In this document: positions 15,886-55,759 of the stretch, piece after piece
Position numbering within the stretch: the first letter of the stretch is position 1
Layout: every line of letters begins with the position of its first letter
Assembly: GCA_008632985.1 (NCBI GenBank)
Contig: QPGO01000059.1
Coordinates: forward strand, 1-64,000
Length of the DNA: 64,000 bases
Reading direction: 5' to 3'
Origin: Psammoneis japonica
Lineage: Eukaryota
The notes under the pieces: model-generated
The model's database searches: none
The model's input: only the letters and a program-made list of their open reading frames with translations
Told to the model about the DNA's origin: nothing
Translations under genes and position numbers: made by a program

Positions 15886-16097
15886 CAGCGTCTTTGTGGG
15901 ACAAACGCGCATTTCTTCCGAACGCTCGCGACGCACGTTTGAGGCCCACGATTCAACAAGAAGTCTTCCGCCGCGACTTCAGACGTGTGATGGACGACCG
16001 ATAATGCTCTCTACTCTCTAGTAGTAGAGAGTAGAGAGAAGCATCTCTGTGTGCAATCTCTTCATAAAACAGAGTAACAGAAACGAGCGAAGGAACC

Positions 16098-18301: not shown

Positions 18302-18492
18302 TTCTGGATTCGTTCCATGTGCGGCATCGACGCCGCAAAATATTAGTGTCATAGTGTTGGTGCGTCATCTGTGAGGTCTCGCTACTCTCTACTAGCTAGC
18401 TACTCTCTCTGGAGCAGAGCTCTGTACTACCTCGAGTAGAGAGAGTACGGTACCGTAGCTAGAGTAGGGCCCTAGTGCCAACAGGTGTCATT

Positions 18493-21518: not shown

Positions 21519-23154
21519 TTCCAAGGGACATTTGGTTGGACAATTGCCATTTCTGGCATTCCATTGGTGGATTGTGCCAGCCCTGTCTTTGGTTTCAGAC
21601 CGTCTTTGCACCGTGCCAAAGCCTGTGGATCCCTTTTGGTCCTTCATTTTCTCTTTCGAATGATGGAGTGCTGTCAGCACGCATTTCTTCTTGGCGTGGA
21701 CCTGCATTGTGACAACTCCTCTTTAGCTCAGAATGTTTCAAACTTTGCGTCATTGCCTCCCTTGCCAGACAATCCAGAAGAATCTAAAAGTGAGTGTGGT
21801 TGTCATCAACGGCACCACATTGCAAATGCTCTTTCAGCTGAATGGGATGTCATTCATGAGATCTGCCAGTCCCTGCAGCAAATCTCGGATTTCTCTGTAA
21901 GAGGATGTTCCGGCACCTTTGTTGAGTTTCATTGGGCGAAAGGACATCAAGACAACGTCCTTCCTTTTGAGTCTCTGTCTCTTCTGGCAAAGTTGAATGT
22001 TCACGCAGATCGGCTGGTGGTGAGTCGACACCAACGCCAATGCTCCGGGGACTCTCTTCTTGCTCCTTGGATGCCCCACTGCCTGGCAAACTTGGTTGTT
22101 CAGAACAAGACGGTTTCTTGAACTTCAAACCCATCCTCCATTGCAAAGCTTCCAGCTCAGCTCTCATCACCTGCATGAAAGAGAAATGCTGTTGGTCTGA
22201 CATCGTGTTCGACTCGATTGATTGGATGGTCCATTCTAAATTGATGGCTGGGAACATTCGGCGGAAGGTCAGTGCAGTCAAATTGGTTCAAGATCTGCCA
22301 CCAACCAACAAGACAGTGCGCCAACACAATCCTGTCCAACCTGACTGTTGCATTCATTGCCAGCATCAGATGGAGGATAGAGACCACATTCTCTGATGTC
22401 CTCACAACGAGAATTGGTGCAGAAAATTTCTACAAGGTCTGCGGAAAAAGTGCGACAACATGCACACCTCCCCCTTGAGATTTGTGACTTGCTCATGTTG
22501 TCTCTTGAAGCATGGTTTTGCAACAAGATCCAATGTTCAGATGGTCTTCATCGCAGTGTGACATCCGCACTGCATTCTCAGGAGGCCATTGGATGGCGAC
22601 ACATTTTCAGTGGACGTTTTTTGTGTCAGTGGAACGTGTCCCAATGCTCTTGTCTGTTGTCCAGCGGCATTTGTCAAGAGCTCACGGACAAAGAACAATG
22701 CCCAGATTGGGCTGCTGCAGTGGGAAATTTCATTTGGGATCCCAAAGGTGGGATCTGTGGGATTCCCACAATGACGATGCACATGGCCATGATTTGGAGA
22801 CCAGAAAATCATCACAATGTAGAGACGCCGAAGCAGAGGTCAAAGTGATTTGCTCAAGATCGGACGAGTGTCTGGCCAAGGACAGATCACAACTGTCAGA
22901 CTTGGTCAAAGAGCATCTTACACACTCAACACACCATCTGCAAAACTGGGTTGCCATGGTCAAACCTGTGTTTGAGTCAAGCATCAAGGAAGCCAAACGT
23001 CTGGCTGTTTGCGGCACTGGAGCCATTGCAAGCCGCTTTGGCACAGCATCGCCTGCTGGTGATGCTGACTCTGGCCAATCGCCACATGCTCCTGCTGCAC
23101 GGTCAGTGTGCCAGGGGTGTGGATTGGCTTGTTGCCACAGATTTTTGGTTTTAT
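21519..23154 (+). mobile_element. 5'-truncated non-LTR retrotransposon (RNase H-bearing LINE) nested in Gypsy pol
   Basis: GTFGW, LHCDN, AEWDVI, HWAKGHQD, LNVHADRL RNase H motifs, CxxC..EDRDHIL knuckle; flanked by imperfect 20-bp repeats at 21499-21518 and 23155-23174. Confidence 0.75.
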
Positions 23155-25167
23155 CATTTCATGGCTCCGAATCGAAAATCGAGTGTCATTCCAGCCTTGG
23201 AAAGGAAGTCTTGGCCCAACATCATGTCATGCTTGCATGGCGCATCAAACACTTGGGCTGCAATGCCATCAACTTGTTTCAACTTGTCAAATTCGGGTGG
23301 CACCAGATCTTTCACAATGGCATGTCGGGAGGACTCATGTCGTCCAGCTGCCGTCTGAAAACTGAGTCGTCCTGATTCATTCACAGTGGGATTGGCTGCC
23401 TTCAGAAGAACTCGGGAGTGAACAAGGGTGTCAGTGCCTCCTGAATCTAATGGCGCACACACAATGCTGGCCTGCTCTCTTGGCCTTGAATTGTGCACGC
23501 CGCCATCAACGTTGTTGGAACCACATTCAGTGGTTTGGGAGTCACAGTTTTTGGGGTTGGCACAGTGCACTCCAAAGGGCCACACAGCACAAGATTCCAT
23601 TGGGTCTCCCACATCTTCATCAACATCAAAACACATGTTTTCATCACAACCACACAAAACACAAAAAGATTGAGCGACACACTCTGACTTGGGCACTTCC
23701 GTCCCTTGTCAATTACGCCAACTTCGTTGGCCTTGCGGGAGTCGACCACTCGATTGCACCCGTTTCCACCTTGCATCTGGCAAGGCCCTCCTTGATCAAA
23801 ATGGTGCAACTCCAATTGCCAGCCACCAGGAGGAGCTGCTCCAGCCAGATTTCCATGGCCTTGGGCATCACCACTGGCTTGGGTGCCATTTTGATTTTGA
23901 CAGCAAGATCTGCCACCTTGGGAATTCTGATGGTCATTTTGATTTCCATGTCCTCGGCCTCCACAGCCTTGGTCACCACAGTTGCCACAACCACCACGGC
24001 CTTGGAAGTTGCCATGACCTCCTTGGCCTTGCAATCCTCTTCCCTTGGCAGTTGCCATGGCCTCCTCCACAACCTCTGCCACGACCTCCACCACGGTCTG
24101 ACCTTGGTTGACAGTTTTGGCTCTCCGGATTCAAAATGCAATCCTTCCACTTGTGATCATGGTTGGCATGTGCAGGGCATCCAGCCTCTGAATCGACTCA
24201 AGTGCCACTCCCATGAGTGTGCCTTGAAGCTTGAGACAAGGAGCCACTGCTTTTCCTCTTCTTCTCTTGCTTCTTTGAGTTGCCTTTGTCCGCGAAGGAC
24301 TTTTTGTTGTTCGTGCAGCTGACAATCTCAGCAAGACTGTCGTTGGCCATCAAACGGCCTGCTTGGGTGTGCATCTCATGCCATGGACGAGAAAAGCTGT
24401 CAAATGTCAACTTTTTCTTCTGGGCTTCGTTTGCTTGCGGAGTGCCCCCCAGCGACTTGTTAGAGCACCAAATCAGCATCTCCATGTGATCAGCATGTGC
24501 CTGCACTTTGGATTTGAATGGCTTTTTCAAGGTTGGCAAGCACTCAATCATGGCATCACGTGCCTCATCATCACAGTGAGACAAGCAAAAACGATTTGTC
24601 TCCTGATTGAAATGCACAACCGTCTCATCTGCATCTGCAATCGAGTCACAGTCAAATTTGCCCACTTGTCCTCAGCAGCATCAGTCAATGCTTCTTCAAA
24701 ACTTTCAAACAACTCCTCGCCAGTGGCAAACTCCAATTTTGCAGCAATTTTACAAAAACAATCCTCAACAAACAACAACGCTTCAATGCCATGGGTGCCA
24801 TCAAAATGCGGACACTTTTTGGCATGAGTGCCACCATCATCATGCGATTGCAACAATTTTGCATCTTCCAAATCAGAATGTTCAAATTTTGCTTTGCAGC
24901 CAATGCACGGCTCTTTGAATGATTCACTCATGACACAGAATAGAATGCAACTGTTCAATGGTCCTCTCAAGGGCTTCTGCCTTTGACTCCAAGTGCTGCA
25001 CTCAACTTGCCAAGTTTTGTTTGTGCCGCTTTTGCTGTTGCACTTGTTTCTGATGCTCAACAGCCCAAACTCCTGCTCTTGCTTGCAGTTCTCTCTTCTC
25101 ATGTTTGGTCAATCTGTTTGCATTGTTCCCAGTCTCCATCCAGTTCTTGAGTCAACTGCAATTGCAG

Positions 25168-25280
25168 TGCAAGGTCCAACAAGACAAAGACTTCAGCGAC
25201 AACAGAATTGTGAGCAAAAGACCAAGGCAACAAGGTCACTGAGATTGAAATCAGCGAAGCCCTTTGCAATGGCTTTTGCA
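25168..25280 (-). repeat. Gypsy 5' LTR (TA and CG converted)
   Basis: TG...CA ends; aligns with 18493-18609. Confidence 0.8.
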
Positions 25281-25701
25281 ATGTCTGATGGAATCATTGA
25301 CACTGTGTGTCAGAAAATGAGGTGCACGTCACTGCATCATTTGGCTCTCATGGTCATCATGCAGAGATGGAATCTCCTGCGAAAGTGCATGACCAAGCAT
25401 GCGGTGCACAAGTGTTTGATGAGCCTCGGGTGTGAAGAACCCATTTTGAATGATTTTGCAGTGATTTTGAGAACACAATGTGTGGAGCGATAGAAGCTGC
25501 AGGTGCTTCTTGTGCAATGGTCCTTCCAATCTGATGTTTGGCTTTAAAGTGATCATTTGTGACGTTTTGCCCGCAGGGGTGGACAGGCACGTGTGCCCCG
25601 TGGCAACTCGACCATCCCCTGCTCCATCCAACGCAATGCATGCACATTGCATGCTGTCAACTGGCTGGGCCTGCTCCATCCCCATGTCTTGGCGCCCAAG
25701 C

Positions 25702-25955
25702 CAAGGAACCCCCTCGAGAAAGTTTGCAGCCCCCCAGGAATGCAAGCGCAAGAAGTTTCCAGAGCACCAGGAACCCCTGCAAGAAAGTTTGCAGCCCCCC
25801 CAGGAATGCAACCGCGGGAAGTTTCTAGAGCATCAGGAACCCACACAAGAAAGTTTGTAGCCCCACAGGAGTGCAACCGCAAGAAGTTTGTAGAATGTCA
25901 GGAACCCCTGCGAGAAAGTTTGTGGCCCCCCAGGAACCCCCCGCAAAAAAGTTGG
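25702..25955. repeat. Minisatellite, ~65-bp unit of two related halves, ~3.5 copies
   Basis: Recurring caggaaccc...gaaagtttgcagcccccc and caggaatgcaa.cgc..gaagttt. Confidence 0.8.
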
Positions 25956-26681
25956 AATCCTGTGAGTGGCAATGCGAGCTGAATGTTGCACATGGGATTC
26001 AATGGTTGTGACGCAATGACACATGTGCACTGCCAAAAATGCATGAAAAATGGACAACGCAGATCTGAAAGACTTGTGCAAAAACAAGAATGACCCTCAC
26101 CAAATTTTCATGGCGACAAAAGCCGCTCGCGTTGCTCCCACACTTTTCTGTGCTGCAAAACCAAGGCATGAATCAACACGTCTTGTCAATTGGACATTGA
26201 AATGCAACAATCTGGATCATCCATGACAAACTTGGTGCTCAAATCGAAGGCGCACTCTTGACACCAAAAATGATGCCCTGCAGAAACCCGCGCAAATTCC
26301 ACACAGAAATGAAATCACCCATCAACAACCCTGTTGCAAACGGCAACCGGCAATGCCACACAAACCACCTCAGCAATCAACCAACATGTCACGAGGTGTG
26401 TCAGACAATGAATGACACGACCCTGCCAACAAAAGTGCCACACCACACAAACGGCAATGACAGTGAGCAGGTCATTGTCAATGATGCGCATTTGTGCGAC
26501 TCCGATGGCCACGGATTGAGAATTTCATGCTGTGGGGGTGAAAGTGAAGACACACGGGCCGCAGACAAAAAAAAGCATGACCTTTGGTCATGCATTGTGC
26601 AGGAAAGCACCAGAAACAATTGTTTCAAGTGTGTCTGTCCATCCACATCTGAGTGCCAACTTCTTGCAAATCAAAACACCT

Positions 26682-27325
26682 CACTCTGCAGCCATTGTCT
26701 GTCTTTGTGTGTCATCGTTTGTCAGCCATTCTTTTTCTGTGATGCAGTCCACAGACTCTGATGGCAAACACACCTTTTGGTTCTCCGTGCCGTGCCGCAC
26801 CGCGCCGCACCTCAGGAAATGTGAAAGCACAGCGTGCTGCAACCAACAGAACCACAAACACAAAACAACACCAGCGATTGGCATTCTCGGCCCAGTTTGC
26901 CACAACAATGCCATCCACTGTGCCAAAAACAGACCAAGTGAAGAGTGGTGCAAACAATTTCAATGAGTGAGATGCTTTTTGCGCCGATGAGATGCCATGG
27001 TCAGTCGATGGCGACATCCGCACTTGCATCCATTGGTTTTTTGTGGGTCTGGTGTTTGTTTTCAAAGTCACACATGAACAAATGACATGTTGTCCGTTGC
27101 ACAATTGGATTTGTTTGACAATTTAATTTTGAAATTGTGCTGACATGTGCAACACACAAGCCCGTTGAGCCTGTTGGTTGCAGCATGCTGTGCTTTTAAA
27201 TTTCCTGAGGTGCTGCGCAGAGAATGAAAAGGTGTGTTTGCCATCAGAGGGCATGGGAGACCCGCGCCAAGCAAAGCAAGGGACAGACAAAGCAGGGGAC
27301 AGACAGACCCGATGGCTGCAGAGTG
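26682..27325. repeat. Imperfect long inverted repeat (foldback/MITE-like)
   Basis: 26756-26849 is the gapped reverse complement of 27171-27250; outer cactctgcagccat / atggctgcagagtg also pair. Confidence 0.7.
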
Positions 27326-28848
27326 CAAAATGCCATTGGTCAGGCAGCATTTCAATTGACTTCCCAAAAAGTCATTGGCCCTGATCACTCTCCGGTGTGT
27401 GTTGTGCACTTTTCTGCACAATTTTGCATTTTTCCTCATGTGAAATGTTGTTTGTGAGCCATGCAACATTTTTGAATGACCCCTGTTGTCTGCTTTGAAC
27501 TTGAGACAGTTGAGTGCTGAGAAACGATGACATCTTCACTGTTCACTTCCTCACTCCTCAAAGGCACCCAACGGCACCTCCTGCTCTGGTGGCCAGCTGC
27601 AGCAAAGTCTCTCTCTCTGGCCAGCAGCAGAAAGCAGATGGAGCACTGCTTTTTAGAGCAGAGGTTGTGCATGAGGAAAAAAATGGAAATTTCAATGGAG
27701 GTGGTCAGCAAAGCACTGCTGCAACTTCTTGGGGCAATGGTTGGCAACACTTGTGACAAATGCCACCACAACTTTCCTTGCAAAAGACAAATCTGCAGCA
27801 CTGGAGATCCAATGCAACAAATCATGCAGGGACTTTCTTTTTCTGGGACACACAGAGATCTTTGTTTTTGGAGATGACACTGTGCCGGACCCATGCTTGG
27901 CCTTGTTTGAGCTGTTCTTCATTGTTTTTGTTCATCAAAGACACAGATGTCACTTTTGGGAGGACGACTGGTTGGGTGAGGGCCTTGGTTTGATGAGAAA
28001 CGGAGTTGTGATTTTGCACAAATCAAAAAATGGGTCTAATTGCTGTTGTCAGCCATTTTTGAGCGGCAAAACCCACACTTTGATGTTCATTCATTCATTT
28101 CACTCAATCTCATGACTGTCTTTGATGGCATCGACTCACAACAGTCATGAAAAGATTTTGATGTCTTGGTGTGCTGTGGGTGGGGGCTGTGTCAAGAAAA
28201 ACATCGTCCTCTTGCATCTGCAAGAAACACCAAAAAGCATGGAATTGAATTGATCCATGCTTGGATGTTTGTTCATCCAATGCACATTTTCTGTTGCTTC
28301 CCTTTGTCAGCATCTCTTCATTGTAAAAGTGGAAAGCATCCCCTGTCTTGTGCATGCCATGTGTTTGTTTTGTGGCAAGCAAGGTTGGTTGCTCTCGTGT
28401 GGTCTCGCACTGGCATGTTTTGGCTGATGCTGACCCACACTTTGATGTTTGCTCACATTCATTTCCTCTCTTCGCTCACACTTCTTTGATCTGATCTCTT
28501 CTTTGCAGTTTCAAAAAGCTTGTTTTGTCTTGGACACAGTTTTGGTGATCTTTCATGCCAACTGGCGGCAACAGCAACCATCACACCAACTGGCGGCAAG
28601 AACCATCATGCCCATCAATGAGAGCTGAGAACAAGAGTGCTGCATCTCATGGGCGCATCCCTCCTCATGATGCAGGATGCCTTCTGCAGCATCGCATTGG
28701 ATGCCAGCCATGGCACTGCATCCAGTGCTGTCTGCAATGTCATGTTGGGTGCCAGCTGTTGCATGGCTTTCAATGCTGTCTACATTGTTGCATCGAATGC
28801 TGTCCATCAAGTGCCAATGTCACCATTTTATCACAGCCACCCGGCCAT

Positions 28849-30400
28849 TTAATCACCACCCATGTCCATCACAGGCATGCTGAGAAATTCCTTGTCAAGC
28901 TGCTTCAGTTTCTTTTTGGCAATTTCCTCACCAAGCACATCACGGAGACTCTCAATCTTGCACTTCTTCTCCATGTGCTCATCCACACTGCCCTTCTTGG
29001 TTGCCCTTTCCAAAGCATCTGCCATCTGCTTGCTTTCTGCCCTGCGCACTCCCTCTTCTCATCCAACTCCAGCCATTTCTGATCATTCAACAGCCATGCT
29101 TCCTCCTTCTTTGCCTGCAACTCCAATCTTTTCTTCTCATTCAAAAGGGCCATTTTGTTGTTTTCTTCTTCCAACATGCCTTGCTCTTGCAACTTTAGAG
29201 CCACATCAGCCATGATGGTTGCTGGTGATTTGCCCCTGCCGCCCTTGCTGGCTCCACTCTTGGGCTTGCTCTTTGCTGAGTGCATCGCTTCTGTCCGCTT
29301 GTCTGAAAAAAATGCAAGGTCTTGACCCATGTCACCACATTTCTCACAGCCATGCAATCCTTGTGAAGGACAAAGAACAATGTCATGCACAGTCGATCCT
29401 TCACAATCCACTGCACCACAGGACACAAAACCATCTGGAGACTCCTCATCACGGTCAACATCATTGCCACTTGCAACTGAGCCCATCACAGAATTTATGT
29501 TGTTGAGCATTTCTTTTTCTGGTGGGCCTTGGCTTGGCTGGATGATTTCTCCTTCCACAACTCAGCCTCAAACACCCCCTTCAGATCACACAGATCCCGC
29601 TTGCACAGTTTGTCAGCCGTGAGCACCAACCCATCTTCAAGTGTTTCAGGAGGTGCACCTCAACCAGCTGGGGTGTTCACACCCACCTGCCCCTCTCCCA
29701 CATGTGCTCCATTGCTCTCCATCTCAATGTTGGGGGTGCCATTGATGATTTTTTCCACCAAAGCTGTGCACCAACGAGCATCTTGCAATTCCTGGTGAGT
29801 GACACCACAACCGGCAGGAAACCAGCCAAAATGATGCTGATCCTGCAAAATCTTGTTCATGCAGCTGGAAACATCAGCATGCCTGTCATTGATCTTGCCA
29901 CCACAAGAATGCACCTTGAAGTCATTGGCACAATGGATGATTGTGTGCTTGAACAATGCAGGTTGCGACTTGTCTCAGTTGACAGCTTCCCTGGAGTTTT
30001 TTGAAGCAGCACTCCACCTCCTTGTTGGACAGGAAAGGTGCTCCTCATCTGTCATCTCAGAGGGATGCTTCCAATCCTTGTGTCCTGTCTTCTTCTTTCC
30101 ATGTTCAACACACTTGCATGGATGCTTGAATTTGTCATCTCGGAATGGCCTCACGTCTGCAGAGTTGCCATTCAGGCTTGCTGCCTCCAATGGCTGCATT
30201 CAGAATGAGCTTGCTCTTTGCATCAAGAGCAAGTGACACTCTTGAAGCACCAATGTCAGCATCAAAAGACGCAAGAGCACTGGTGGAAGAAATCTCATTC
30301 CACTGTTGTGCAAGCATTGTTCATGCATTCCGATCAATGTCAGCAGCAGCAGCAGCAGATGGTGCAGCACGGTGTGCGTGTTGATGCTCTGCTGAAAGTG
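28849..30400 (-). pseudogene. Decayed hypothetical gene with charged coiled-coil C-terminus (possibly a transposon accessory gene)
   Basis: Consecutive frameshifted protein-like fragments, e.g. ALKLQEQGMLEEENNKMALLNEKKRLELQ and IESLRDVLGEEIAKKKLKQLDKEF. Confidence 0.4.
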
Positions 30401-31964
30401 CAAGTCATTTCAGAGTTTCTGTGCAGCAACTTTCTCTGCACTTGCATCGCAAAGATGCTGCACAAGAACTCTGAACAGCAACCATTTTGGAGCGCAAAAG
30501 AAGAGAGTGCAAATCTGCTGCCGGAAGAAGTTGCGGGGCCATGCCGGCACACAAAGTTTGTGTTGCATGCAGCAGAGTTTCTGCAGCGCGTTGCTGACCA
30601 CCTCCAATCTCTCCTTGAGTGCAACACAAAAGACAGAAAGAACAAAACGAACATGTGCACAGCAGACAACCAATGAAATGCCTTGTTGTCAGGGCCCCAG
30701 AGTGCAAATGAATCAAGGGAACAGACTGCTGGTTTTGATGCATTGCGATTCCTTTGGTGGGAGGATGAGGAACAAAAAACCCTGGAAAGGAAAAAGGTGC
30801 AGGGATCACATTTTTGAAGCAACAAGATTCTGTGAAACAGGCATGTGACAACTGCCCATGCAAACAAGGGGCAGTTGTCTCGTGAGAGAGGTTCATCATC
30901 GGTGTGAAAGAAATTTACAGAAAATGGAGTCTGGCATCGGACGGGTCATGCAGGTGAATTTTTGGTCATTTTGTTGATGCTTTGTCAGCAACAGCCTGTG
31001 ACAAAAGAACCATGTGTTGTCTTGAAAGAAGGCATCCTTCATGAACCTGGTCCCTCAGCGTCTGCAGAGGAAAACAGACCCCGCTGTGGGGTCCAAAATC
31101 ACCCCCAAAATGCCAAACGGTCATGAAGTCAGAAAAGCTTGTCATGGATGGATTCGACAATTTGAAGTGCCTGGACAACAACTGGAGACAAAGCTCCAAA
31201 CAATGGCACAGCAGTCGTGGTTTGAACAAAAAAACACGCTGCCGCACAATGAAACACTTCAAACGACCGCCATTGAGCAGTTTCTCACCAAAAAGTCGGC
31301 CGGCCACAAAAAAATGCTCGAACGGTTCCGCGCGCAACTGACAGTGTACAGTGCTGCAACGCATCCGTTGAGAATGTTGCTGCCAGCACTCAGCACGCCC
31401 ATCTTGGATCTTCATCAGCTCGTTGCTGCACAGCACATCTTCGGGAACATCAAAGCAGAAATGACCCTGACACGTCACTGTTGAAAAACTTTGTTCTAAC
31501 ACTCCAAAGTGCCAGAAGCACTTTCCAGCAGAAAAACCTGCCAGAGCTGCGTCCCTCCGGGTTGGCACTTCCGGAAAATAAAACAGCATGTTCCAACATC
31601 CCCGGGGTGCCTCATGATGCCGTTTGTCTTTTCTGCGCACATTCTGCGCAGAACACATGCAAGCGTTTTAAGATCCCACGCACCACTGCAAGACTCCCTC
31701 CCGAGACTCGCAAGATTTGCATCATCAAAGTTTCTGCCACTCGCACCATTCCTGTCGCAACAATCAACCCACAATCTGAGTCCGACAAACAGCAACAGTT
31801 CACTTCATTGCTGTCTCCTGACAATGTCAACAACACAACATGCCAGGGGGGCGAACTGGAAGGCACAGTGGACGCGTGCACCCCCATCAGCGTGAAACTG
31901 ATGATGACACGCCAATCCTTGGGGGTGACTTGTCAGCGCCCAGCGACCTCGCCGAAAAGCACAA

Positions 31965-32353
31965 GACGCGTTCCAGGTCTAGGTGGGACCTCGTGCTGCT
32001 GAACTGTGACATCGATAGTTTTTTGAATCTCGTCGTATGTCGCGCACGCAGAATTCTACGTGATTTTTTGATATTTTGTGTCATTTTACGGTACACTTAT
32101 TGAGCGATCCGTCCAAAAACTTTTGACATTTTTTGTTACAGCGCGATTCTATAATGTCTTAAGAATCGCGTAGGGCAGGTGCATTTGCAAAAACGTCGAG
32201 TGGTAAGAGGCATAATTGCACCACAAACTTGGCCGTTTATTTGATGTTGAAGACAAATGTGTCCATTAATTAAATTCTCGTACTACGGAGCTCGCACGTA
32301 GAATTCTACGGGCCAAATGTCACACGGAGTCCCACCCAGGGCTGGAACGCGTC
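31965..32353 (+). mobile_element. MITE copy 1 (TA-retaining), TSD ACAA
   Basis: TIR GACGCGTTCCAGGTCTAGGTGGGAC...GTCCCACCCAGGGCTGGAACGCGTC with a 4-bp flanking duplication. Confidence 0.9.
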
Positions 32354-33017
32354 ACAATGAAACCGCCCAGTTGGAAATGGGAGATAAATGCCGACAAAAC
32401 TGTCGTCAGAGACTTGCACGTTTGGCCAAGTTTTGGAAGGAGAATGACCCTGAACATTGTTCTCTTGGCGTTAGAGAGGTTTCTGCTGAAGACCTTTGCG
32501 ATCCAACTGAGCACTGCTTCAATCGGTGCCGAGAAGACCTTGTGCATGCAGGCATGAATGACCAGCTTGCACTTCATTTCTCAGTGTCAAACAAGAAGAA
32601 GGCCAACGGAAAGCTCAAGTCATGTGACGACATCCAAAAACACAAAGACGCCATGATGTGGGGTGCCAAGACGGCAGACGAGCACTTGCCTGAGAGCTTC
32701 TGTGTGATGTTTGACAAGCTCCTCGCCGGGCACAAGAAGGAACATGCTCAAGCAAAAAAGAGAGGGGATGCAGATGAAAACTCTGCTGATCCTGTTCCCG
32801 TTTCCTTGCACAAGCTCATGCTGAAATGGAGCACAGAAGCCAACAACGTGTTTGTGCAGTTCTGGACCACTGCCCAGTGGAATTTCATGGCCCGGTCAAC
32901 ATCCACAGATCCCTTGTGGATGAAGAATTTCAAACTGGGTGCGGACAGCTTGATTGGAAAGCATGCAGAGAGGCTTTCAGAGAAAAACACACATGCCAAC
33001 CCACTGGATTGGACGAT

Positions 33018-33407
33018 GACATGCTCCAGGTCCAGGTGGGACCTCGCACTGCTGAGCTGTGACATCGACAGTTTTTTGAGTCTCGTCGCATGTTGCGCAC
33101 GTGGATTTCTACGTGATTTTTTCGATGTTTTGTGTCATTTTACGGTGCACTTGTTGAGCGATCCGTCAAACAACTTTTGACATTTTTTGTTGCAGTGCGA
33201 TTCTACAATGTCTTAAGAATCGCGCAGGGCAGGCGAAGTTGCAAAAACATCGAGTGGTGAGAGGCACAATTGTGCCACAAACTTGGCCGTTTGTTTGATG
33301 TTGAAGACAAACACATCCATTGATTAAATTCTCGCACTGCAGAGCTCGCACGCAGAATTCTGTGGGCCCAATGTCACACGGAGTCCCACCTGGGGCTGGA
33401 GCGCGTC
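33018..33407 (+). mobile_element. MITE copy 2 (strongly TA-converted), TSD CGAT
   Basis: Same TIRs and body as copy 1; cgat on both sides. Confidence 0.9.
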
Positions 33408-34585
33408 CGATGTGCTTTTGGGCGGGCGCGGGTGTTTGTTGTGCTCTTCGTGGCGACAAGTTTGTTGGCAACAATGCTCTCTTTTTGGACAAAGGTGTGA
33501 AGGAAGGAACGTGCGCCACCAAGCATTGTGAGCAGATTGCTGGAATTTTGCAGGCCCACTTGGACAAAATCACAAATCACATGGATCTGAGTTGTGTGAA
33601 TCCGCGTGGCATTCGAAAGAGCTCGGGGACCTGCGCCTTGAATGGGACCACTTCACCCCCCGTCAATTCCAGCTGTTGCATCTTTGGAGAGTGGACTGTT
33701 GGGAGTGTCCTTGATTGCTGTTGGCATTTTGGCAGCGTTGGCGACCAACATCTTGGGCGCATTCTTGCGGGTTTGGATCCGAACGATGCGTCGTTTGACA
33801 TGCTTCCACCTCATTGGAAGCTTGCAGATCCGATGTCAAATGAAAAAGTGAAACTTGGCATGATGAAAACATTTGGAGAGAATGTGACAAATGAGCACAA
33901 GACTTTTGTTCCTGTTCTGCTGTGGTGCTTTGCATGCATGACATGTTGCTCAGAGTCGCTGATTGAAGTTGTGGTGAGCGTGCCGGGTCACGACTTTTCA
34001 AAGCTGTCAATCCTCCACGACAGGAGACTTTTGGGGGAGCTGCAATCTCTTGTGACAACAGAGCCCACAGAAGGGGTGTTGACTGTCCCCACTGGGATGC
34101 CACCCCATGCTGGCATGGCAAGACAACTGTGTGAGTTGGTGCGCAAAGCCGATTTGATGCTTGCGAACATGGACTCGCAGATGGAGACGTTGGTGGTGGC
34201 AGCGTCGGATGTGACAGATCAAAAAGCATGGGATTCTGGACATGTGACAAGTGATCGTCTGAAAGGGATGTTCAAAAGTTTTCAGGAGGAGACGATGCAA
34301 ATGATGCATTCTGAGTTGGATGGTTTCAAGACCATTTTACGGTCCTTTCCCGCCAGCGGCGGCAACACGTGCATGAACGGCCGCATTGGTGCGGCTTCTG
34401 ATGACGGTCCAGTGGAAACCACCTTTTGCCATGACAACAAAACACACATGGCTCCAAAGCAATTTCGTCTTCCATCGGGAACAACAATCAAGGAAGGCCT
34501 GAGATTTTGGCTTTTTGGCCAAACCACATCAGTTGATGGTGCAAAGGTCATGCAACCTTTTTGAGACCTTGTGCCTTCCTCTCTC

Positions 34586-35014
34586 GACGCGTTCCAGGTC
34601 CAGGTGGGACCTCGCACTGCTGAACTGTGACATTGATGTTTTTTTGAATCACGTCGCATGTCGTGCACGTAGATTTCTACGTGATTTTTTTGACATTTTG
34701 TGTCATTTTACGGTGCACTTTTTGAGCGATCCGTCCAACAACTTTTGACATTTTTTGTCACAGCGCGATCCGTCCAAAAACTTTTGACATTTTTTGTTAC
34801 AGCACGATTCTACAATGTCTTAAGAATCACGCAGGGCAGGTGCATTTGCAAAAACGTCGAGTGGCAAGAGGCACAATTGCACCACAAACTTGGCCATTTA
34901 TTTGATGTTGAAGACAAATGCATCCATTGATTAAATTCTCGCACTGCGGAGCTCGCACGTAGAATTCCACGGGCCCAATGTCACACGGAGTCCCACCCAG
35001 GGCTGGAACGCGTC
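34586..35014 (+). mobile_element. MITE copy 3 with ~39-bp internal tandem duplication, TSD TCTC
   Basis: Same TIRs; gcgatccgtcca..acttttgacattttt repeated twice. Confidence 0.9.
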
Positions 35015-36884
35015 TCTCCCACCAGAGGTGAGGAGGGTTCACTCTGTTCAGTGGAGTCCTGTCTTTCGCTTCATTGAGAATGCACTGTCAGAACAAGATG
35101 AGTCACTCGGCGCCGACTCGGGTTTTGATGATTTGCACGAAAAGTGTGTCGTGTGCTTGAAGGAGCGTGCCTCGCATTGCTTTGCCAAAGGAGATCCTGT
35201 GGGGTGGAGCCTTGGAACTTGGAGCAACAGGGTGAGTCGTTCAATGACACTAAAAAGTGGCACCGAGTCGGACAAAGGATTTTTGAAAGCTGGTGCGAAC
35301 CGAAACAAACCTCGGCGCGCTGCAACTCGAAAGCGCGGTCCTCGCAACACGAAATGTCCAGGTCGCCAAAGCAGACACCTTGAGAATGAAAGCATGGCAG
35401 AATCAAGAGTGGGAGAAGAGGATGCCTTTGCCAAAGCTTTCAGTGGTGTAGAGGACAGAATGACAGATCGCATGCGTGAGCAAGACGAAGAAATCAGAGC
35501 TGAAGCAGAGCGGGAAATGGCGGCAGAACGAGCTCAGCAACAGAAAGAGTGGGCCCAAACTGGTGATGGAGTGGGCACTGACAGCACTCTTCTTTGTGCT
35601 CATCAGACGAATGGCATTGAATGGAATTGTGGCAACAACTCTTTTTGGCAAGAGTGTCGCATGGTGAAAAAGTTGGTCGTGCGATTGACTCCGATTCTGC
35701 TGGTGCTGGTGTTGGCATGGGCGAGGCGGGGACCAAACCAACTCAACCTGGTGTGTGTCCATTGTTGGATGCACTTGCTTTCGCACCGTTCCTGATCACA
35801 AGTGCAAAAACAAGAGCTGCAACAAGCACGTCCACTGCTTGTGTGCGCAACGTTGCAGCTTGGCGAGTGCAAGCAATGAACTGAGCATGCGTTGTTCAAT
35901 TGCATGCAAAGGCAGTGATTGGACATTTTGTCATTAGTTGGCACAGTGTCATCATTGCATTTTACTTTTACAATTTATGAGAGCAACCGAAGAAGTGGTC
36001 CAAGAGGCATCGCAAGCGGCCCACTGCACTGGGGTTCTCTAATGTGCCAAACACCTTTGGCACTGACAAGACTCTGTCTCATCTTGCCCGCTCCATCTTG
36101 TGATTAGCAGCACTGGACAGTTTAGTTAAAAGTGTTCAGCATTGTCAAAAATGCTTTGATCGTTCATTCTGTTGTTGATGCGCCTGTCTAACTTGCCAGT
36201 TCTGAGAGTGTTTTTTGGACAAAACAGAAATCCACAATTCTCAATGACACACAACGAAGACCAACCCAGTGGGATGCATTGTGCAATTGCTCCCAATGTT
36301 GAAAAAAGAAACGGAGAAATTGGTGCAAGCATCATTGAGATGTCACATCGTAAAGTGGGACACCGGCGGCACGCATCATTGTGCTGCTGCAGTTTCTTGC
36401 GTGTGACTTTGAAACACATGTTCAACGATGTGTGTCGGCAATGCAAGCAATGAACTTGTTCATTCCACTGTTATAATTTTGGTTTAGACATCTTTAAAAA
36501 ACACACAAGAATGATTTTAAAAGAATCACAGTCAACGGAAATTAAACGCAATGCGGTGCCTTTGCCAGAGGCAAAGGGGGAAATGCCTCCGACTTCGAGA
36601 AAATTTTCGAAGGACCGCCCACTTCGTGTTGCTGTAGTCACGTGAGAGGCTTTGCATTTTACATTCATTAAAATGAAATTATGGGTCTTGTAATCAAGTG
36701 AATCAATCCCGTTAAAACAGGTCTGTTTTGACGGGGACCCCCCACAAGTCTGTACGTCCATCCGCTTGAGCAACTTTTTCGAGTTGAACGCAACCCTTCT
36801 CGTGTTAATCGCCGTGATAAAATCCATTTCAGTCTGTTGCACACCAACCTTGTTGCAGCTGTTCTGCTGGCAATCCTTTTCAAC

Positions 36885-37410
36885 AAATCGTTTGTTCCAC
36901 TCCTGTTGCTGACATTTGGCGAAAAGGATCGCCAGCAGAAAGTGTTTTGTGACAATGACAATTGCATCTCAATGTCGCCGTCACCAATCAGCAGCGATGC
37001 CCCAAACGCCTCCACGCCCACCCAAATGGAAGAAAAAGCCGACGAAAAGAAGCGTGCAATCCTGGCAGATGATGCATGGTGCCAGCATGGAAGAAAACCA
37101 GGGTTTCAGTGCCATGGGTGAGTCGCAAAATGTTGATGTTCTTTGTCATGTTGCGCCAACGTCACGCATCTCACAAACGTTCGTTGGTCGTTGTGACTGT
37201 CCTGCTGTCAATGCTTGCCAAGAAATCGTTTGTTCTGCTCCCATTGGCGAGGTTTGATCAAAAGGATCGACAGCAGAAGGCATTTTTGTGACAGCAATTG
37301 TTTGTCTCCATGTCGCCATTGCCGACCCAGCGACACAACAAATGCCTCCACCATCCACCAGCCCACAGCCCACAGCCCACCCAAATGGAAGGTCAAGCCG
37401 ATGGAAAGAA
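36885..37410. repeat. Diverged direct duplication (period ~335 bp)
   Basis: aaatcgtttgttc...aaaaggatcg.cagcagaa...cccacccaaatggaag at ~36885-37050 and ~37222-37410. Confidence 0.65.
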
Positions 37411-39397
37411 ACAGAGGAAGAGGCGCAAGCAGGAGATGTGGAGCACCCTTGGCTGTTCCTTTGTTGATGGAGAAGTTTTGGATGTGAAAACAACCACAAA
37501 CGGACGTGTTCCAGTCCCAGGTGACGCACAAAACGACGATCGATTTTGAATGTAAATCATGCATCATTTAGTGTGTGGAGCATTTTCACACAAAATGCCC
37601 AAGCAGATTGGCTTTTGCAGGCATCAAGAGTGTGAACATTTAAACAGTTTTTTGTGGGGCATTCAAGTCCTCATGGGATGTGCATCATAAACTTCCTCAG
37701 TGGACTCAAAACTGATTGCACCTTAGTGGAATTATGCTGAGATTTCTCTGCAGGTAGAAAACCCACCAAGCAACATCGTAGAAAGACACATTTGGGCAAC
37801 ATCCAAATGACGGCAATGTTTTCGCCGAAAATCATCCGTTGTGTTACGAGTCTTTTAACGCAATGAAAAACATAGATGGCACAACAACAATGACATTGCA
37901 ACACTCACACGAGTCTTGTCAGTGTTGCAAAACATTCACATTTGAACAAATCTACACTTTTGGTGGTGAAAGTTCGATCGCAAGTTAGGGACCGCGCAAA
38001 AATCGCGCAAATGTCGTTTTTGTGCACGATTTGGTTCACGTGCGGCTGAAACACGTCAACGGTGTCTTTTGTGTGTTGGCGGCATCAAACAAACATGCAT
38101 TCAGTCGAGGCGCCGGAAACAAAACAAGAGCGCCAAACTGTCTCCTGCGAGATGTTCAACAATGCCTGCCCATCAGTGAACGATGAGCGCAAGGGTTTGA
38201 AACATTGTCTGAGCTGGGACAACTGCAACTGGATGTGATGCTGTTTGTCAGTGTGCACAGTGCACTCGCCACAACTCTAGATTCTAGGTTTTGATTCTGT
38301 GACTCTCGATTCCAGGTGCCTTCCATTAGAAATGCTCAACAAAGCATCACTTTGTAGTCTTAAAATGGCAATTGCTGCTCGAGCAACTCCCACACAACGA
38401 AATGGGGCCACCCAACATGCCAGTCGCGTTTCGTTTTCGCGGATTTCCCAATCCCGATCATCCGATCATGCTCTCTACAAACCATTGAATTGGTGTCTTA
38501 GAATCTTGTGTCAACACCCATTGCTGCTAAAGAAACTCCCCTGAACACCCAACATGACATCCACGTTTCGGTTGTGTTTTCAAGGATTGCCTGATTCCGA
38601 CAGTTGCTGCTGGACTGCTGGAGCTCACATTTGCAAAATCATCCGACAGATCAATGCAGACCAATTTCTCACCGGAGCCCATGGTTCTGCCATGATCACC
38701 AGTTGCATGTTCTGAATCACTGTGAGGTGGCACTTCTGAACTGCCAAAAGCATCGGGAGCAGCAGCATCGTTTCCATCCTTGTAGCCGGCTTCAGACAGT
38801 CTTCCACGACATTTGTGTCTTCCTTGTCTCTCACTTTGCTTGGCACCCGATCCTTAGAAGCAAACACCCTTTAGGCTCATGTGCTTCGTGGCAGCTGTGC
38901 TGGAGGTCTTCACCCGACCAAGTGACAGTGCAGTGGTGCAACCCTCGGCACAGTTGTCTGCGCGAAGGGCGACCGAATTTGAGGCGCCTCAGAAGGCAGA
39001 CGAGATGTTGGACTTAACAACTCCCAGAAAGATGCCACGTTGTAGGGCCTTAAACATGAGGCCACTGTCCATCCACACACAATCCATCCATACACATTGA
39101 AAGGTAGCCGGAAACGCGGTGATAAGAAGCCTTACGGAGTCAGTAATCTTCATGGTTGATTTGCTGTTTTTGTGTCGGAAAAAATATCGCGTGTCTATCG
39201 CGGAGCGGAATCGGCTACGGGCAACGTACAGACTTACGGGGGGTCCCCCGTTAACATTCCTGGTCACTCTACAGTATGAATACTGTGTATCCTATGTTGT
39301 GTACGGTACCCTACTACAGCACTACAGTACACCGCCTTTTTTTTTTCGGGGGTGGTCCCACGCTGCCGACGTTGCCTCTTGCCAAACCCTCTTGCGA

Positions 39398-41902: not shown

Positions 41903-42770
41903 AAAGTTTGGACGGTCAGTTGTAGTTAGCACAGCAGGGTATTCTTTACGAAACCTGATCTACGTAAAGCCGCAACATAATGCCTAAGTTAAATTTATGA
42001 CAATAGAATGAAGAAATACTCCGTTATGGTCCTAAACTTCTTGGCGGGTCAGAGCTTGTTCTTGAAATGATAACTGAGGCATGGCAAATGTGAGCTTTTT
42101 GCAATTAGATTCCAATGCTTTAAATCCCTGTATGATGGGCCAAAGTGTGTTGCAATCCCTCCTCTGCTTTGACTTTCTGATTCAACCAAGTAACACTTGC
42201 AAAAAATTTGGCCTCTGTCCAGTTTGTGTAGAAGTGAACCTGTGTGCACCCATGTTGCAAGGGGGGGGGGGGGGGTGCTGACTGCACCAGTGAGTTCATG
42301 GACAAACACATTGTCTTTGTTCTAGATTAATCAGGGTGAACACAAATGATGAAAAGATTTTGAGGATCATGACAAAGCATCTCAAGAACATTTAAAAGCA
42401 ATCTTCTCACTTCAACCCCTGTGCCAACGCAACAGCAGTCCCAAGGGTGGCCGCTGCAATCTCTGCTAAAGCCAGATGAGTTCCTTTTGATGTGGCTTGC
42501 TTCAAGTCATTGTCCACCATTTTTTTGACACATGTTGGATGATGAGACTCACAATGCTTGACAAATGCATCAACCATCATCTCAGATCGCCATTTGCTGG
42601 CAAATGGCACGCAAGGGTCAATCCAAAGGTCTGGAAAATTTCGTGCAACTCTGTGATGACACAAACTGCAATGCAGTTTCCAGGATGCTTTTGTTTTTGG
42701 CCACAAGAACTGCAGGCATGCAGTGACAAAAACAAGAGTTTGGCATTCTCACTCACTGCAAAGTTGCACG

Positions 42771-42915
42771 TTTGTTTGGGGGCTTAAATGGTTGACCCTT
42801 GCAGCGGTGTTGACCCAATCAATCCCAAAAGAAGATCAAGGATTTGTTTGGGGGCTCAAACGGTTGACCCTTGCAATGGCATTGACCCAACCAATCCCAA
42901 AAAAAGATCAAGGAT
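42771..42915. repeat. Tandem duplication, 72 bp x2
   Basis: tttgtttgggggct.aaa.ggttgacccttgca...aagatcaaggat twice. Confidence 0.8.
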
Positions 42916-43859
42916 TGAAGCAATGCAATTCTGTGACCATGAGGACAAGTCATCATTTGGAAGCATCCAGCCACTTTGATCCACTGCCAACCACACTTCA
43001 ATGAGTCGTCAGGCTTCTGTGGCCAACAAACAATGCAATGGGAGGCATGCCACAACCGCACAACCATGTGTCCCAATCAATTTGTTGTGCATGCGCGGGT
43101 GCTCAGCAAAGCAATTCCATGAAAAATGTCCAAAAGTCTTCCAACACTGCAACCTTGTCAGCAAAACAGGCCACGCGGGCTTGGAAGAAGGACTCAAGTC
43201 ATGGATCAGACAGAAGCCTTTTTCATGAGCAACCATGGAATGGGCATCATCAGGATTGTCATCATCAATGTCAAGCACCAGTTTTGTGTGCTTGTTTGGC
43301 ATCCATTTGAAAGCATCTCACAATTGTGATCATCCACCCAGAGTGTCAAAGTCAATGAATCAATCATCGTTGAGAATGTGGGCCATGATTTTGCCTTGCA
43401 ACCACATGGTCCAAGCTTCATTGAGCCAATGATGATCCCAAGTGGCATTGATGGTGACAAGATTCCTGCTTCAACTGTGCAAGATCTTGTGAGTGGCCAC
43501 CATGTCTGCCAAGGACCGGTCTGTGGCTGACAATGCAGGAGCAAGAAAGCAACCATTCACATTCTCCATGCCCTGGAATTTTAGAATTGAAAACCAGACA
43601 ATGCAAAAATTGGGTTGGTGTGTTTTTCTGTTTGAAGCTGTCCACATTTAAAAATGAGAAAGAAAGTGAAAGAACAAAATCCATTTTTGAGGGTGCTGCT
43701 GCACTGCCGCCCTGCAACTCTGGCAAATGAGCTGCTGGCCCACACCCCCAGTGCACAAAAATGCGTCAGGAATGCATTGTGATTAGACTGTTTTGACACC
43801 ATCTTGCAATGATGCCCCGCCAAAGTAGCTGACAATGGTGTGCGCACCACTCAGAGCAA

Positions 43860-45140
43860 AATGCTTTGCATCACAGATGCTCTCTCTGGACATGGGCTAA
43901 ACCATGGCAACCCAATTTTGTGGTCGTTGTGTGGAGTGTGCAAGATGTTCCTCTGAGGAATCTAACAGATGAGTGCAATCTTGAGCAAGGTGCTCTGACC
44001 TGCACAAATGAATGGCAGCAACCTCTGCCTCAGCATCTCAGTGTAAAGCAGATTTCTGTGTCTTGGCATCATCACCATTGGGCCCAGATGAAGTTCCCAA
44101 TTGTGGCAGCCCAGTCAAATTGTCCAGTTCTGTCATCCACACACGCACAAGACAAGCTCCAATCAAGCAGGCAACTCTGTTGGGCCACACTGCAAAGAGA
44201 GGAGAAACGTCCATTGAAAAGATGATGCCAGCCAATCCCACCCTGAGAGAGAGCCATCTCCCTGTCCGTTGCATGTGTTTTGTCCAGACTGAACTGTTCT
44301 TCCCGCAATTCTGCTTGGAGTGCCAAGAGAAGCAGGTCATGAACCGGGGGGGGGGGGGGGGCAGCATGGATGTCATTGCACTTCTTTTGAAGGCATTGCA
44401 GAAACTGACACTGTGGCCATGGCTTGTTGTGGTTGCAACAGTGGAGGACATGGTCCCTGTCTTCCTTTGCAGCCTGACAACAAATGCAGCCATCCAGGTG
44501 AGCGGGGTTCTTGCACCAGTGGACTGTCCCATCAGTTGGAAGAAGATCCTGCACCAGTTTGACAGTGCTGATGCACCTGCGAATGTTCCTTGACATCAGT
44601 TTGGAGTGAGCCATCCAATTGATCTCCTCAAAGACCGCATCAGACCATTGGTTCTTCTCTTTCATGTGTGCGATCAGAGGGGGAGTGGCTGCGTCATGTC
44701 AGAGGATGGCTTTGAAGTTCAAACCAAGGGCAGCACCCTGAATTGTGAAATTTGCAGGGCAGCGAGGCATTTGCAGAGCAACAGAGGTGTTGTGGGCATG
44801 CAGACCCTGATGTGGTCCGGCGATCCTGCCTGCTCTCACATTGAGCCTTGCCAGCAGAGAAAGTGATGACAACAGGAAGAGACAATCCTGATGTCCCTCA
44901 ACCCAGTGGAGAAAAAAAGGAAAGACTTGCACCAAAGGGGGGAGAATGGTGGCAATGCCAACAAATCACACCACCCACCCCATGCTGAATGCATGGGGTT
45001 TTGCTGTGATTTCTTTGGCAGGCATCAAACAGGCTTTGGTCAAGGCCAATTTGCGTGCAGCCACTTCAATGAGGTCTCATTCACACCACACCAAACAAGG
45101 GGGGGATCTGTCCAAATCAGTCACAGCAAAGACCAACAGA
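43860..45140 (-). mobile_element. Decayed RNase H-LINE fragment, same family as 21519-23154
   Basis: HWVEGHQD, WSDAVFEEINWMAHSKLM, VKLVQDLLPT, CICC..EDRDHVL; limits approximate. Confidence 0.7.
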
Positions 45141-45148
45141 CAGGAGGA

Positions 45149-45333
45149 TGTTTTGGTCTGTCCGTGTGTGGACAGACAAGGCTGCTGATGTGTTTGTTGG
45201 CTCGCTTCTTAGAAAGTGTGACTTTGATGATGTCTATGACATTTTGAAGACTTTGGCAGAATGCGGGATAGATCCAATCTAGGATCCTTTTCACAATTCA
45301 AACAGATCTTGTTTTTGACACGGATTCATTCAG
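45149..45333 (+). repeat. Copia 5' LTR
   Basis: Starts tgttttggtctgtc; matches 51978-52163. Confidence 0.85.
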
Positions 45334-47755: not shown

Positions 47756-48151
47756 GACGGGTTCCAGTCCCAGGTGGGACTCCGTGTGACATTGGGCCCG
47801 TAGAATTCTGCGTGCGAGCTCCGCAGTAAATTTGTGCTGCAATGAAAATGCAAATGATCGCCAACAGAAAAAGAGGCAATTTTACGAACGCATCTCCTCC
47901 TTCACACTTGCAGCACATCATTGACAGTTTGCCCGGGCATGTTCTTCAGACATTAAAGAATGCACCCAGTGCATTTTCACTCTCATGAATGTTGAAAATA
48001 GAAAGCCTTTGGCTTCGCAAAACAGGGAGCATGAAACAATTTCGTAGAATGTCACACGTAGAAATGCACGTGCGCGACATGCGACGCGATCCAAAAAACC
48101 ATTGATGTCACAGTTCAGCAGTGCGAGGTCCCACCTAGAGCTGGATGCATC
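47756..48151 (-). mobile_element. MITE copy 4 (second subfamily) inserted in Copia pol, TSD TCTC
   Basis: Related TIRs in reverse orientation; different core; tctc on both sides. Confidence 0.88.
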
Positions 48152-51977: not shown

Positions 51978-52163
51978 TGTTTTGGTCTGTCTGTGTGTGG
52001 ACAGACAAGGCTGCTGACGTGTTTGTTGGCTCACTTCTTAGAAAGCATGACTTTGATGATGTCCACGACATTTTGAAGACTTTGGCAGAATGCAGGATAG
52101 ATCCAATCTAGGATCCTTCTCACAATTCAAATGGATCTTGGTGTTTTTGATGCGGATTTGTTT
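51978..52163 (+). repeat. Copia 3' LTR
   Basis: Immediately after the PPT; direct repeat of the 5' LTR; last bases uncertain. Confidence 0.85.
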
Positions 52164-55700: not shown

Positions 55701-55759
55701 CTGCTGACATGGCGAAGGATGAAGGACGCAATCAGCAATCGAACCGTGTTGCAGCTTCA

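Follow-up and report, generated by a model that had tools for sequence, protein, structure and literature searches.

Why should neighbouring copies of one transposon, embedded in DNA that is almost devoid of the dinucleotide TA, differ so strongly in the TA that they themselves retain? The question is raised by a 64,000-nt stretch of the genome of the diatom Psammoneis japonica (contig QPGO01000059.1 of GenBank assembly GCA_008632985.1, positions 1 to 64,000 of the forward strand; hereafter the window), which contains three neighbouring copies of a miniature inverted-repeat transposable element (MITE), designated c1, c2 and c3, and two copies of a sister subfamily, c4 and c5 (Table 1). From the comparison of these copies with each other, with their surroundings and with related sequences, we consider it probable that the MITEs inserted into a block of dead repeats, in which a local process that turns TpA into TpG or CpA eroded each insert in place and independently of the other copies.

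The elements are short, non-coding MITEs, i.e. non-autonomous DNA transposons with terminal inverted repeats (TIRs), and belong to a very abundant family. Copies c1–c3 have the TIR GACGCGTTCCAGGTC.AGGTGGGAC, which matches end to end at 25 of 30 positions in c1 and at 23–25 of 30 across c1, c2, c3 and c5, but at only 13 of 30 in c4, owing to a 1-nt deletion. The sister subfamily has its ends (~95 and ~72 nt) in common with c1–c3 and a different core. A 21-nt TIR pattern was found at five places in the window, against none expected from 100 shuffles, and c1 as single-stranded DNA forms a long hairpin (fold z = −6.5). The 4-bp target-site duplication (TSD) is perfect in all five copies; alone, it is insufficient to name the transposase superfamily. 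For comparison with further copies we used the Logan contigs of one public sequencing run containing the stretch and of two sister runs, all from one sample. Contig depth in the MITE bins was 24,600–130,700, versus 140–590 in the flanks (a difference of 100-fold or more), and 5,189 contig pieces aligned to c1–c3, depth not being equal to copy number. Empty insertion sites were also detected: a diverged paralogous contig joins position 31959 to 32355 across c1, two contigs of diverged paralogues join 34579 to 35013 across c3, and c5 splits one copy of a repeat of which the two in-window paralogues, A and B, are uninterrupted and carry a single CCAT (14046-14051 and 54489-54494). No autonomous partner element was found within the 64-kb window, and searching metagenome contigs for exact occurrences of a conserved 21-nt stretch of the MITE gave no matches.

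For c1–c3 we inferred 28 ancestral TA sites, namely alignment columns in which TA is kept in one copy and replaced by TG or CA in the others, or in which TG and CA alternate. Copy c1 retained 22 of these sites, c3 nine and c2 five; c1 differed significantly from both c3 (Fisher test, p = 0.001) and c2 (p = 1e-5). The flanks of c1 are depleted, as an earlier note on this DNA had remarked, with 6 TA in 1,663 nt compared to 22 in the 389 nt of the element. On a 500-nt grid, the c1-bearing interval held 23 TA, and the MITE-free intervals between 19.0 and 36.0 kb held 0–4 each. The short strings that the note had quoted for the three copies were all present, including the site tggTAagagg (column 306), which reads TA in c1, TG in c2 and CA in c3.

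Several comparisons support the loss of TA, rather than its gain, as the direction of change. The three-way split seen in column 306, with TA in c1, TG in one of the other copies and CA in the remaining one, recurs in columns 67, 124 and 409, and TG and CA also alternate in columns 45, 321, 360, 362 and 439, where no TA survives among c1–c3. Because the interchange of TG and CA takes two steps, via TA or CG, their alternation at one site indicates loss of TA. Exchanges of TG and CA made up 6 of the 9 adjacent double differences between c1 and c2, 2 of 3 between c1 and c3, 8 of 11 between c2 and c3, and 12 of 19 between c4 and c5. The variant places in the contigs, of which 40 out of 436 were listed, point the same way with one exception (32016, see below). 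Position 33103 reads A (as TA) in 94% of the contig depth where c2 has TG, position 34968 reads T (as TA) in 85% where c3 has CA, and CG is found in 80–96% of the depth at 33196, 33249, 33363, 34664, 34804 and 34829, where c2 or c3 has a private TG or CA. Contigs of run X3 keep TA at 31995, 31998, 32049, 32254, 32259 and 32261, where c1 has TG or CA; c1 is thus partly eroded itself, and the true ancestral TA count exceeds 28. Outside the MITEs, sites with TA in repeat copy A read TG (16 sites) or CA (16 sites) in its paralogue B; the reverse was not found, and TA is kept in both copies at two sites.

The decayed open reading frame (ORF) around the inserts, hereafter the host ORF, records the same direction at the protein level. 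It is in frame throughout once c2 and one copy of its TSD are removed. In its 385-aa part at 33407-34561 there is no Tyr, versus 3.6% in nine homologues, and the six conserved Tyr columns read His (two), Cys (two), Arg (one) and Phe (one), while every Trp, Phe, Cys and Asn column is retained. Since changes of TAY to CAY or TGY (Y, pyrimidine) replace Tyr by His or Cys, this loss of Tyr supports the loss of TA. The homologues share 37–54% identity and were found in metagenomes and in Seminavis robusta. At 48 metagenome loci encoding relatives of the host ORF, the ratio of observed to expected TA (TA o/e) was 0.48–0.89, with a median of 0.69, so that the family, in a search that favoured intact copies, is not intrinsically poor in TA.

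The erosion of c2 and c3 proceeded independently in the two copies as far as can be judged from 13 sites at which TA is present in c1 and lost in both. At these sites c2 and c3 agree nine times and disagree four times, while a model of independent erosion, with context weights fitted on non-MITE paralogues only, predicts 7.06 agreements (P[≥9] = 0.21; P[all 13] = 3e-4). The observed agreement is not above chance; therefore no shared TA-poor clade is needed, and a clade with identical states is excluded at at least four sites. This bears out the copy-by-copy mutation proposed in the earlier note, which had named a TA-poor clade sharing identical TG and CA states as the contrary case; c2 and c3 do not form such a clade, although with so few sites some inherited states may remain compatible.

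Private changes order the copies in the same manner. Copy c1 has three private TA losses, no private CpG loss and two other private transitions or transversions, c2 has 11, 6 and 8, respectively, and c3 has 4, 5 and 2. This fits c1 being the youngest and c2 the oldest insert, and is in line with the idea that the youngest insert is the least affected. Expressed as −ln of the fraction kept, the rates correspond to 1.1 hits per TA site, 0.2 per CpG and ~0.007 per other site in c3, and to 1.7, 0.24 and ~0.027 in c2. TA loss in these two copies was thus ~6 times faster than CpG loss and 60–140 times faster than change at other sites, which are rough values based on small counts.

The changes have a clear preference for the sequence context T-A-pyrimidine. 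At YTAY and RTAR sites (R, purine), the change fell 45 times on the strand with a pyrimidine after the A, versus 17 times on the other strand (p = 5e-4); the ratio was 28:12 in the non-MITE paralogues and 17:5 in the MITE pairs. Strand choice alone cannot separate an influence of the base 3' of A from that of the base 5' of T, for which the likelihoods are equal. This ambiguity between positions −2 and +1 is settled by the TA sites that survive. In 33,240 nt of depleted DNA, 61 of the 109 remaining TA were in the context Y-TA-R, 47 in the mixed contexts Y-TA-Y or R-TA-R, and one in R-TA-Y, compared to 158, 470 and 235 of the 863 TA in 20,700 nt of normal DNA (p = 2e-20). Scaled to length and assuming equal starting densities, survival is roughly 0.3% for R-TA-Y, 6% for the mixed class and 24% for Y-TA-R. 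R-TA-Y, which has a 3' pyrimidine on both strands, is almost extinct, and Y-TA-R, which has none, survives best. The motif is accordingly T-A-Y, with A read as G afterwards, or R-T-A in the case of a thymine target. The weights obtained by fitting for the 3' base were 3.4 for C, 3.0 for T, 1.4 for G and 1 for A. The MITE copies reflect the same order. In c1, TA was kept at 4 of 8 R-TA-Y, 14 of 15 mixed and 4 of 5 Y-TA-R sites; the corresponding numbers were 0, 7 and 2 in c3, and 0, 3 and 2 in c2. Losses in c1 affected R-TA-Y at four of eight sites and the other classes at two of 20 (p = 0.04), and this concentration in the most sensitive class is as expected of an early stage of the same process.

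TA depletion in the window is organized in sharp-edged, CpG-poor blocks, which together make up two-thirds of its length. The window as a whole has a TA o/e of 0.28, with CA at 1.49 and TG at 1.50. Block 1, in which c1–c3 are located, is CpG-poor and has CA and TG o/e values of 1.5–2.1, and TA o/e in the parts between the blocks is 0.3–1.1. In successive 500-nt intervals TA o/e falls from 0.84 to 0.30 and 0.03 from 18.0 kb, and from 0.82 to 0.36 and 0.03 from 41.5 kb; across a single 500-nt boundary it rises from 0.14 to 0.82 at 39.0 kb and from 0.03 to 0.47 at 61.5 kb. Over the 500-nt intervals, TA o/e rises with CG o/e (Spearman 0.69) and falls with increasing CA/TG o/e (−0.82). The strands are affected alike, with 3,456 TG and 3,412 CA in the 33,240 nt of depleted DNA. 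Recognizable housekeeping genes, which encode an RMKL-like methyltransferase, a WW protein, CIA30, Nop53, a CID protein and an RNA ligase-kinase, are confined to the TA-normal parts. The depletion targets are repeats, with no viral gene recognized. As TAA and TAG are gone, long ORFs fill all six frames of the depleted DNA. A Pfam scan of 70 long ORFs between 18.5 and 63.8 kb (66 in depleted or intermediate DNA, four in adjoining TA-normal DNA) gave one weak match, to an aspartyl protease, in a depleted block, and none for the others.

One of the block edges cuts through a repeat. To the left of ~13.2 kb, copy A keeps TA at 28 sites at which it is lost in copy B, and there is a single TG–CA double difference; to the right, A keeps TA at 4 more sites, there are 18 TG–CA double differences, and both copies are eroded. 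Exposure of only part of A, despite its homology to B, argues for the targeting of a domain rather than recognition of a repeat.

The following course of events would account for these results. MITEs would have landed in a block of dead repeats of ~20 kb, within which a locally confined process converts TpA into TpG or CpA nearly to completion. The same process would then act on every insert where it is located, on each copy separately, and the fraction of TA lost would track the residence time. Copy c1 would be a recent insert, with 6 of 28 sites lost, mostly of the most sensitive class, and c3 and c2 would be older, with 19 and 23 lost. The process acts about equally on both strands, coincides with the decay of CpG and halts sharply at expressed host genes, and its targeting may follow a silenced or methylated chromatin domain and not sequence homology. 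The chemistry might be adenine deamination in DNA by a TadA/ADAT-like enzyme, with A converted to inosine and read as G.

The differences between the copies could also be read in reverse, with c1 having gained TA through C-to-T changes at CpA/TpG and the TA-poor copies being unmutated, as CA/TG versus TA differences are the signature of fungal repeat-induced point mutation (RIP) read backwards. The "unmutated" state would then need a TA o/e of 0.02–0.1 and CA/TG values of 1.5–2.1, unlike ordinary sequence. Moreover, individual sites read TG in one copy and CA in another, the homologues from other organisms carry Tyr at positions that are His or Cys in the host ORF and are themselves TA-normal (0.48–0.89), and the TA o/e of c1 (0.75) is at the level of normal genes, without excess. 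We rejected such a gain on this evidence of direction and regard it as extremely improbable. TpA is mildly under-represented in most genomes, and TA o/e is 0.3–1.1 even in the gene regions of the window, which would suit blocks that are foreign, compositionally odd or under selection against TA, with the MITE differences being neutral divergence. We attach very little credence to this, because paralogues inside and outside the blocks show one-way TA loss (32 to 0), a block boundary cuts through a repeat copy, 35 of the 38 transitions between c1 and c2 fall within the change of TA or CG to TG or CA, and the relatives of the host ORF are TA-normal.

When the erosion took place and which base was changed are separate matters. 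Erosion could mostly have preceded insertion, with c2 and c3 derived from sources that were already TA-poor, so that the series would reflect which lineage transposed. MITEs are mobilized in trans, so that transposition could continue in eroded copies as long as their ends were usable; c2 and c3 have nine of 13 states in common, c3 retains every TA that is left in c2, and the C at 32016 (see below) occurs in most of the contig depth. Nevertheless, this concordance does not exceed the independent expectation and four sites are discordant, the private CpG and TA losses of c2 and c3 oppose 80–96% of the contig depth, the three changes that c2 carries within the terminal 13 nt of its left TIR are unlikely for a recently mobile copy, and the common survivor sites are accounted for by context class. 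We thus judge pre-insertion erosion to be quite unlikely, and erosion appears to have occurred after insertion and not partly in the source copy. As for the base, TpA is its own complement, and each event can therefore be read as a change of adenine or of thymine. The thymine of TpA may have been modified or mispaired, for example when oxidized to 5-hydroxymethyluracil, with T>C at purine-T-A as the outcome. 5-Hydroxymethyluracil prefers TpA in dinoflagellate DNA, and the context data fit R-T-A as well as T-A-Y; the sequence itself does not discriminate between the two readings. A thymine target nonetheless seems unlikely to us, as the preference for T-A-C/T resembles the UAC(G) of TadA (PMC13170351) and the authors of the Bigelowiella study discussed below favour an ADAT2-like enzyme (10.64898/2026.01.13.699255).

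Some observations weigh against independent erosion of each insert in place by a T-A-pyrimidine-directed process. The retention of TA in c3 and c2 does not differ significantly (Fisher p = 0.36); the "graded series" of the earlier note therefore holds insofar as c1 is far less eroded, but its other two steps are inseparable in degree, and the series consists of a single copy that is almost intact and two that are heavily eroded. Copies c1 and c3 are equal in other private changes (two each), and only CpG and TA losses separate them. The comparison comprised only five copies, and with nine of 13 states shared by c2 and c3 it may be compatible with erosion in a source copy before transposition. 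At 32016, C is found in 76% of the depth where c1 has T, the sole contrary place among the 40 of 436 listed; this state fits the context rule, but equally a common CA-bearing lineage. None of the 48 metagenome loci was TA-depleted and none contained a 500-nt window below 0.15, in a search biased to intact copies: one of its two search peptides contains Tyr, so that eroded relatives would escape. Lastly, TACG sites were not preferentially lost, with 8 of 109 survivors in depleted DNA versus 102 of 863 TA in normal DNA, and the TA of two TACG sites survives in c1, c2 and c3 (columns 108 and 139; 32057 and 32087), one of them in all five copies. This survival is not predicted by a strict TadA-like preference for UACG, and the context class of the two sites is not the most resistant one. 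A neighbouring methylated CpG, functional constraint or chance are possible causes. Protection of TA by an adjacent methylated CpG was considered for TACG sites and rejected, as columns 108 and 139 were kept but 386 and 409 were lost.

A literature search on TpA depletion and hypermutation, in diatoms and generally, found only a preprint by Mettrop et al. on the chlorarachniophyte Bigelowiella natans (10.64898/2026.01.13.699255). In mutation-accumulation lines of this alga, 231 of 302 nuclear mutations occurred in two integrated viral regions, one of a nucleocytoplasmic large DNA virus (NCLDV) and one of a virophage; 230 of these 231, each of them located at TpA, were A>G or T>C, they arose in some lines only, and the rate of new mutation was about 1000-fold above background (10.64898/2026.01.13.699255). 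In the B. natans genome, 124 clusters are depleted in TpA and rich in transposon-type domains and unannotated genes, and an ADAT2-like adenine deaminase was proposed (10.64898/2026.01.13.699255). Neither diatoms nor a preference for the base 3' of the edited A are mentioned in the main text, and the supplements may hold the latter (10.64898/2026.01.13.699255). As far as described there, the two systems have in common the change of TpA to TpG or CpA on both strands, its confinement to regions, and a long-term depletion of TpA with a gain of CpA and TpG. In contrast to the integrated viral targets of the rhizarian B. natans, the targets in this stramenopile are dead repeats and MITE inserts, and depletion is deeper (TA o/e 0.00-0.1, versus 0.45 in the B. 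natans NCLDV region). Further differences are the visible link to CpG decay, the measured 3' pyrimidine preference and the dated transposon inserts. While live mutations were observed in B. natans, the process in P. japonica was deduced from the comparison of sequences.

Other known processes resemble the one described here in part. Like RIP in ascomycete fungi, it ruins repeats and transposons through dinucleotide-specific transitions and leaves sharply bounded, skewed blocks. RIP, however, changes C to T at CpA and creates TpA, whereas here TpA is destroyed and the GC content rises; the TpA excess in repeats that marks RIP is absent, TpA being removed and CA/TG in excess (1.5-2.1). Unlike homology-triggered RIP, it has eroded one repeat copy over only part of its homologous length. 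CpG decay through deamination of 5-methylcytosine likewise yields TG and CA, in the same blocks and the same MITE copies, but cannot remove TA, which was lost ~6 times faster per site. ADAR prefers a 3' G, and such a preference was not seen here. TadA, ADAT2 and ADAR naturally act on RNA, while the MITEs and in-place paralogues changed without an RNA intermediate. In common with TadA and ADAT2, the changes can be read as A>G with a 5' U/T, and the most favoured context, T-A-C, compares with the natural TadA motif UACG (PMC13170351).

The comparisons suggest that a TpA-erasing regional hypermutation has now been encountered in a second major lineage, where it acts on transposons and approaches saturation. 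This kind of hypermutation was reported only once before, in the 2026 preprint on a chlorarachniophyte and with an open mechanism; its signature in a diatom genome would make it a wider eukaryotic genome defence and not a curiosity of one alga. MITE inserts of differing age in an erased block would serve as an internal clock, according to which the process continued after the block had been erased, R-TA-Y was lost first and Y-TA-R last, and TA was lost ~6 times faster than methylated CpG. The T-A-pyrimidine motif offers a concrete specificity for testing candidate deaminases. Erased blocks, devoid of Tyr codons and with TGA as the only stop, give long false ORFs and hide transposons from homology searches. 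More tentatively, diatoms and chlorarachniophytes might share an enzymatic genome defence in which adenine is edited in DNA at T-A-pyrimidine and which is aimed at silenced, CpG-methylated repeat domains instead of sequence homology, a possibility that we consider doubtful at present. If true, this defence would mirror fungal RIP and count as an ancient eukaryotic equivalent of APOBEC/ADAR-type restriction; it would saturate, erasing Tyr codons and the stops TAA and TAG, and the dated MITEs would give its kinetics by context class.

Table 1. Features of the window. Positions refer to the forward strand; TA and CG are numbers of dinucleotides; TSD, target-site duplication.
Feature	Position	Strand	Length	TSD	TA	CG	Remarks
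MITE copy c1	31965..32353	+	389 nt	ACAA 31961-31964 / 32354-32357	22	28	TA o/e 0.75, CG o/e 1.45; least eroded copy
MITE copy c2	33018..33407	+	390 nt	CGAT 33014-33017 / 33408-33411	5	23	Within host ORF; most eroded copy
MITE copy c3	34586..35014	+	429 nt	TCTC 34582-34585 / 35015-35018	9	26	Internal 39-nt duplication
MITE copy c4	47756..48151	-		TCTC (+ strand)	8	20	Sister subfamily
MITE copy c5	58803..59199	-		CCAT 58799-58802 / 59200-59203	3	17	Sister subfamily
Host ORF	32358..34561	+					Decayed; interrupted by c2; multi-copy diatom family
Depleted block 1	18800..38900						TA o/e 0.00-0.16 per 500 nt (19.0-36.0 kb, excluding the three MITE inserts)
Intermediate zone	36.0-38.9 kb		2.9 kb		~60		TA o/e 0.0-0.3
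Depleted block 2	42500..61500						TA o/e 0.00-0.19 per 500 nt; contains c4 and c5
Short depleted stretch	13200..15900						Left edge inside repeat copy A
Depleted stretch	1-500						On 500-nt grid
Repeat copy A	12603-14189						Paralogue of copy B
Repeat copy B	53048-54635						Paralogue of copy A
RNA ligase-kinase gene	16098-18164						
927-aa ORF	39119-41902	+					Intact; TA o/e 0.4-0.8
Aspartyl protease match	23157-23708	-					Retrotransposon type; E 6e-4
Tandem units	25704-25936						Three to four units of ~65 nt

The family of the host ORF comprises proteins of ~600-670 aa with the motif KYDDSKADKAGEKLSEKN and is widespread in diatom-like metagenome contigs (homologues P0141-P0152). A Pfam search with the family gave nothing above threshold, three of four homologues having a faint match to Phage_int_SAM_1 (E 0.11-0.4), and a search against the PDB gave no matches. 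The family could be a mobile element of the tyrosine-recombinase type, perhaps resembling Cryptons. Contigs of diverged paralogues of the host element have paired TG–CA differences at 32527-32528, 35198-35199 and 31960-31961, which makes the host element itself a repeat with independently eroded copies.

The match to an aspartyl protease lies below the curated cut-off, and is suggestive of a dead long terminal repeat element making up part of block 1. The zone at 36.0-38.9 kb separates the erased block from the TA-normal ORF, and may consist of younger DNA or represent a graded edge of the domain. That ORF, of 927 aa, stands as a 3-kb island amid the two erased blocks and belongs to a multi-copy family with relatives of 36–50% identity in Nitzschia and in metagenomes. 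It has no Pfam domain, and represents either a host gene that is protected or a recent insert. Three ORFs of the window have their best named matches in diatoms: the RNA ligase in Odontella, Rhizosolenia and Cylindrotheca, the 927-aa ORF in Nitzschia and the host ORF in Seminavis. Their best identities were 48–54%, with no identical protein on record; protein homology points to a diatom or a close relative, and not to Bigelowiella.

Part of the window is a segmental duplication, in which 13563-14437, 15263-15883 and 18003-18326 match 58281-59585, 60411-61034 and 61149-61473 with 83–93% identity. The RNA ligase-kinase gene is present between the last two duplicated pieces in the first copy only, and assembly gaps (runs of N) occur at equivalent places in both copies (14438-15259 and 59595-60331). 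Within the erased block 1, the tandem units are 72–84% alike.

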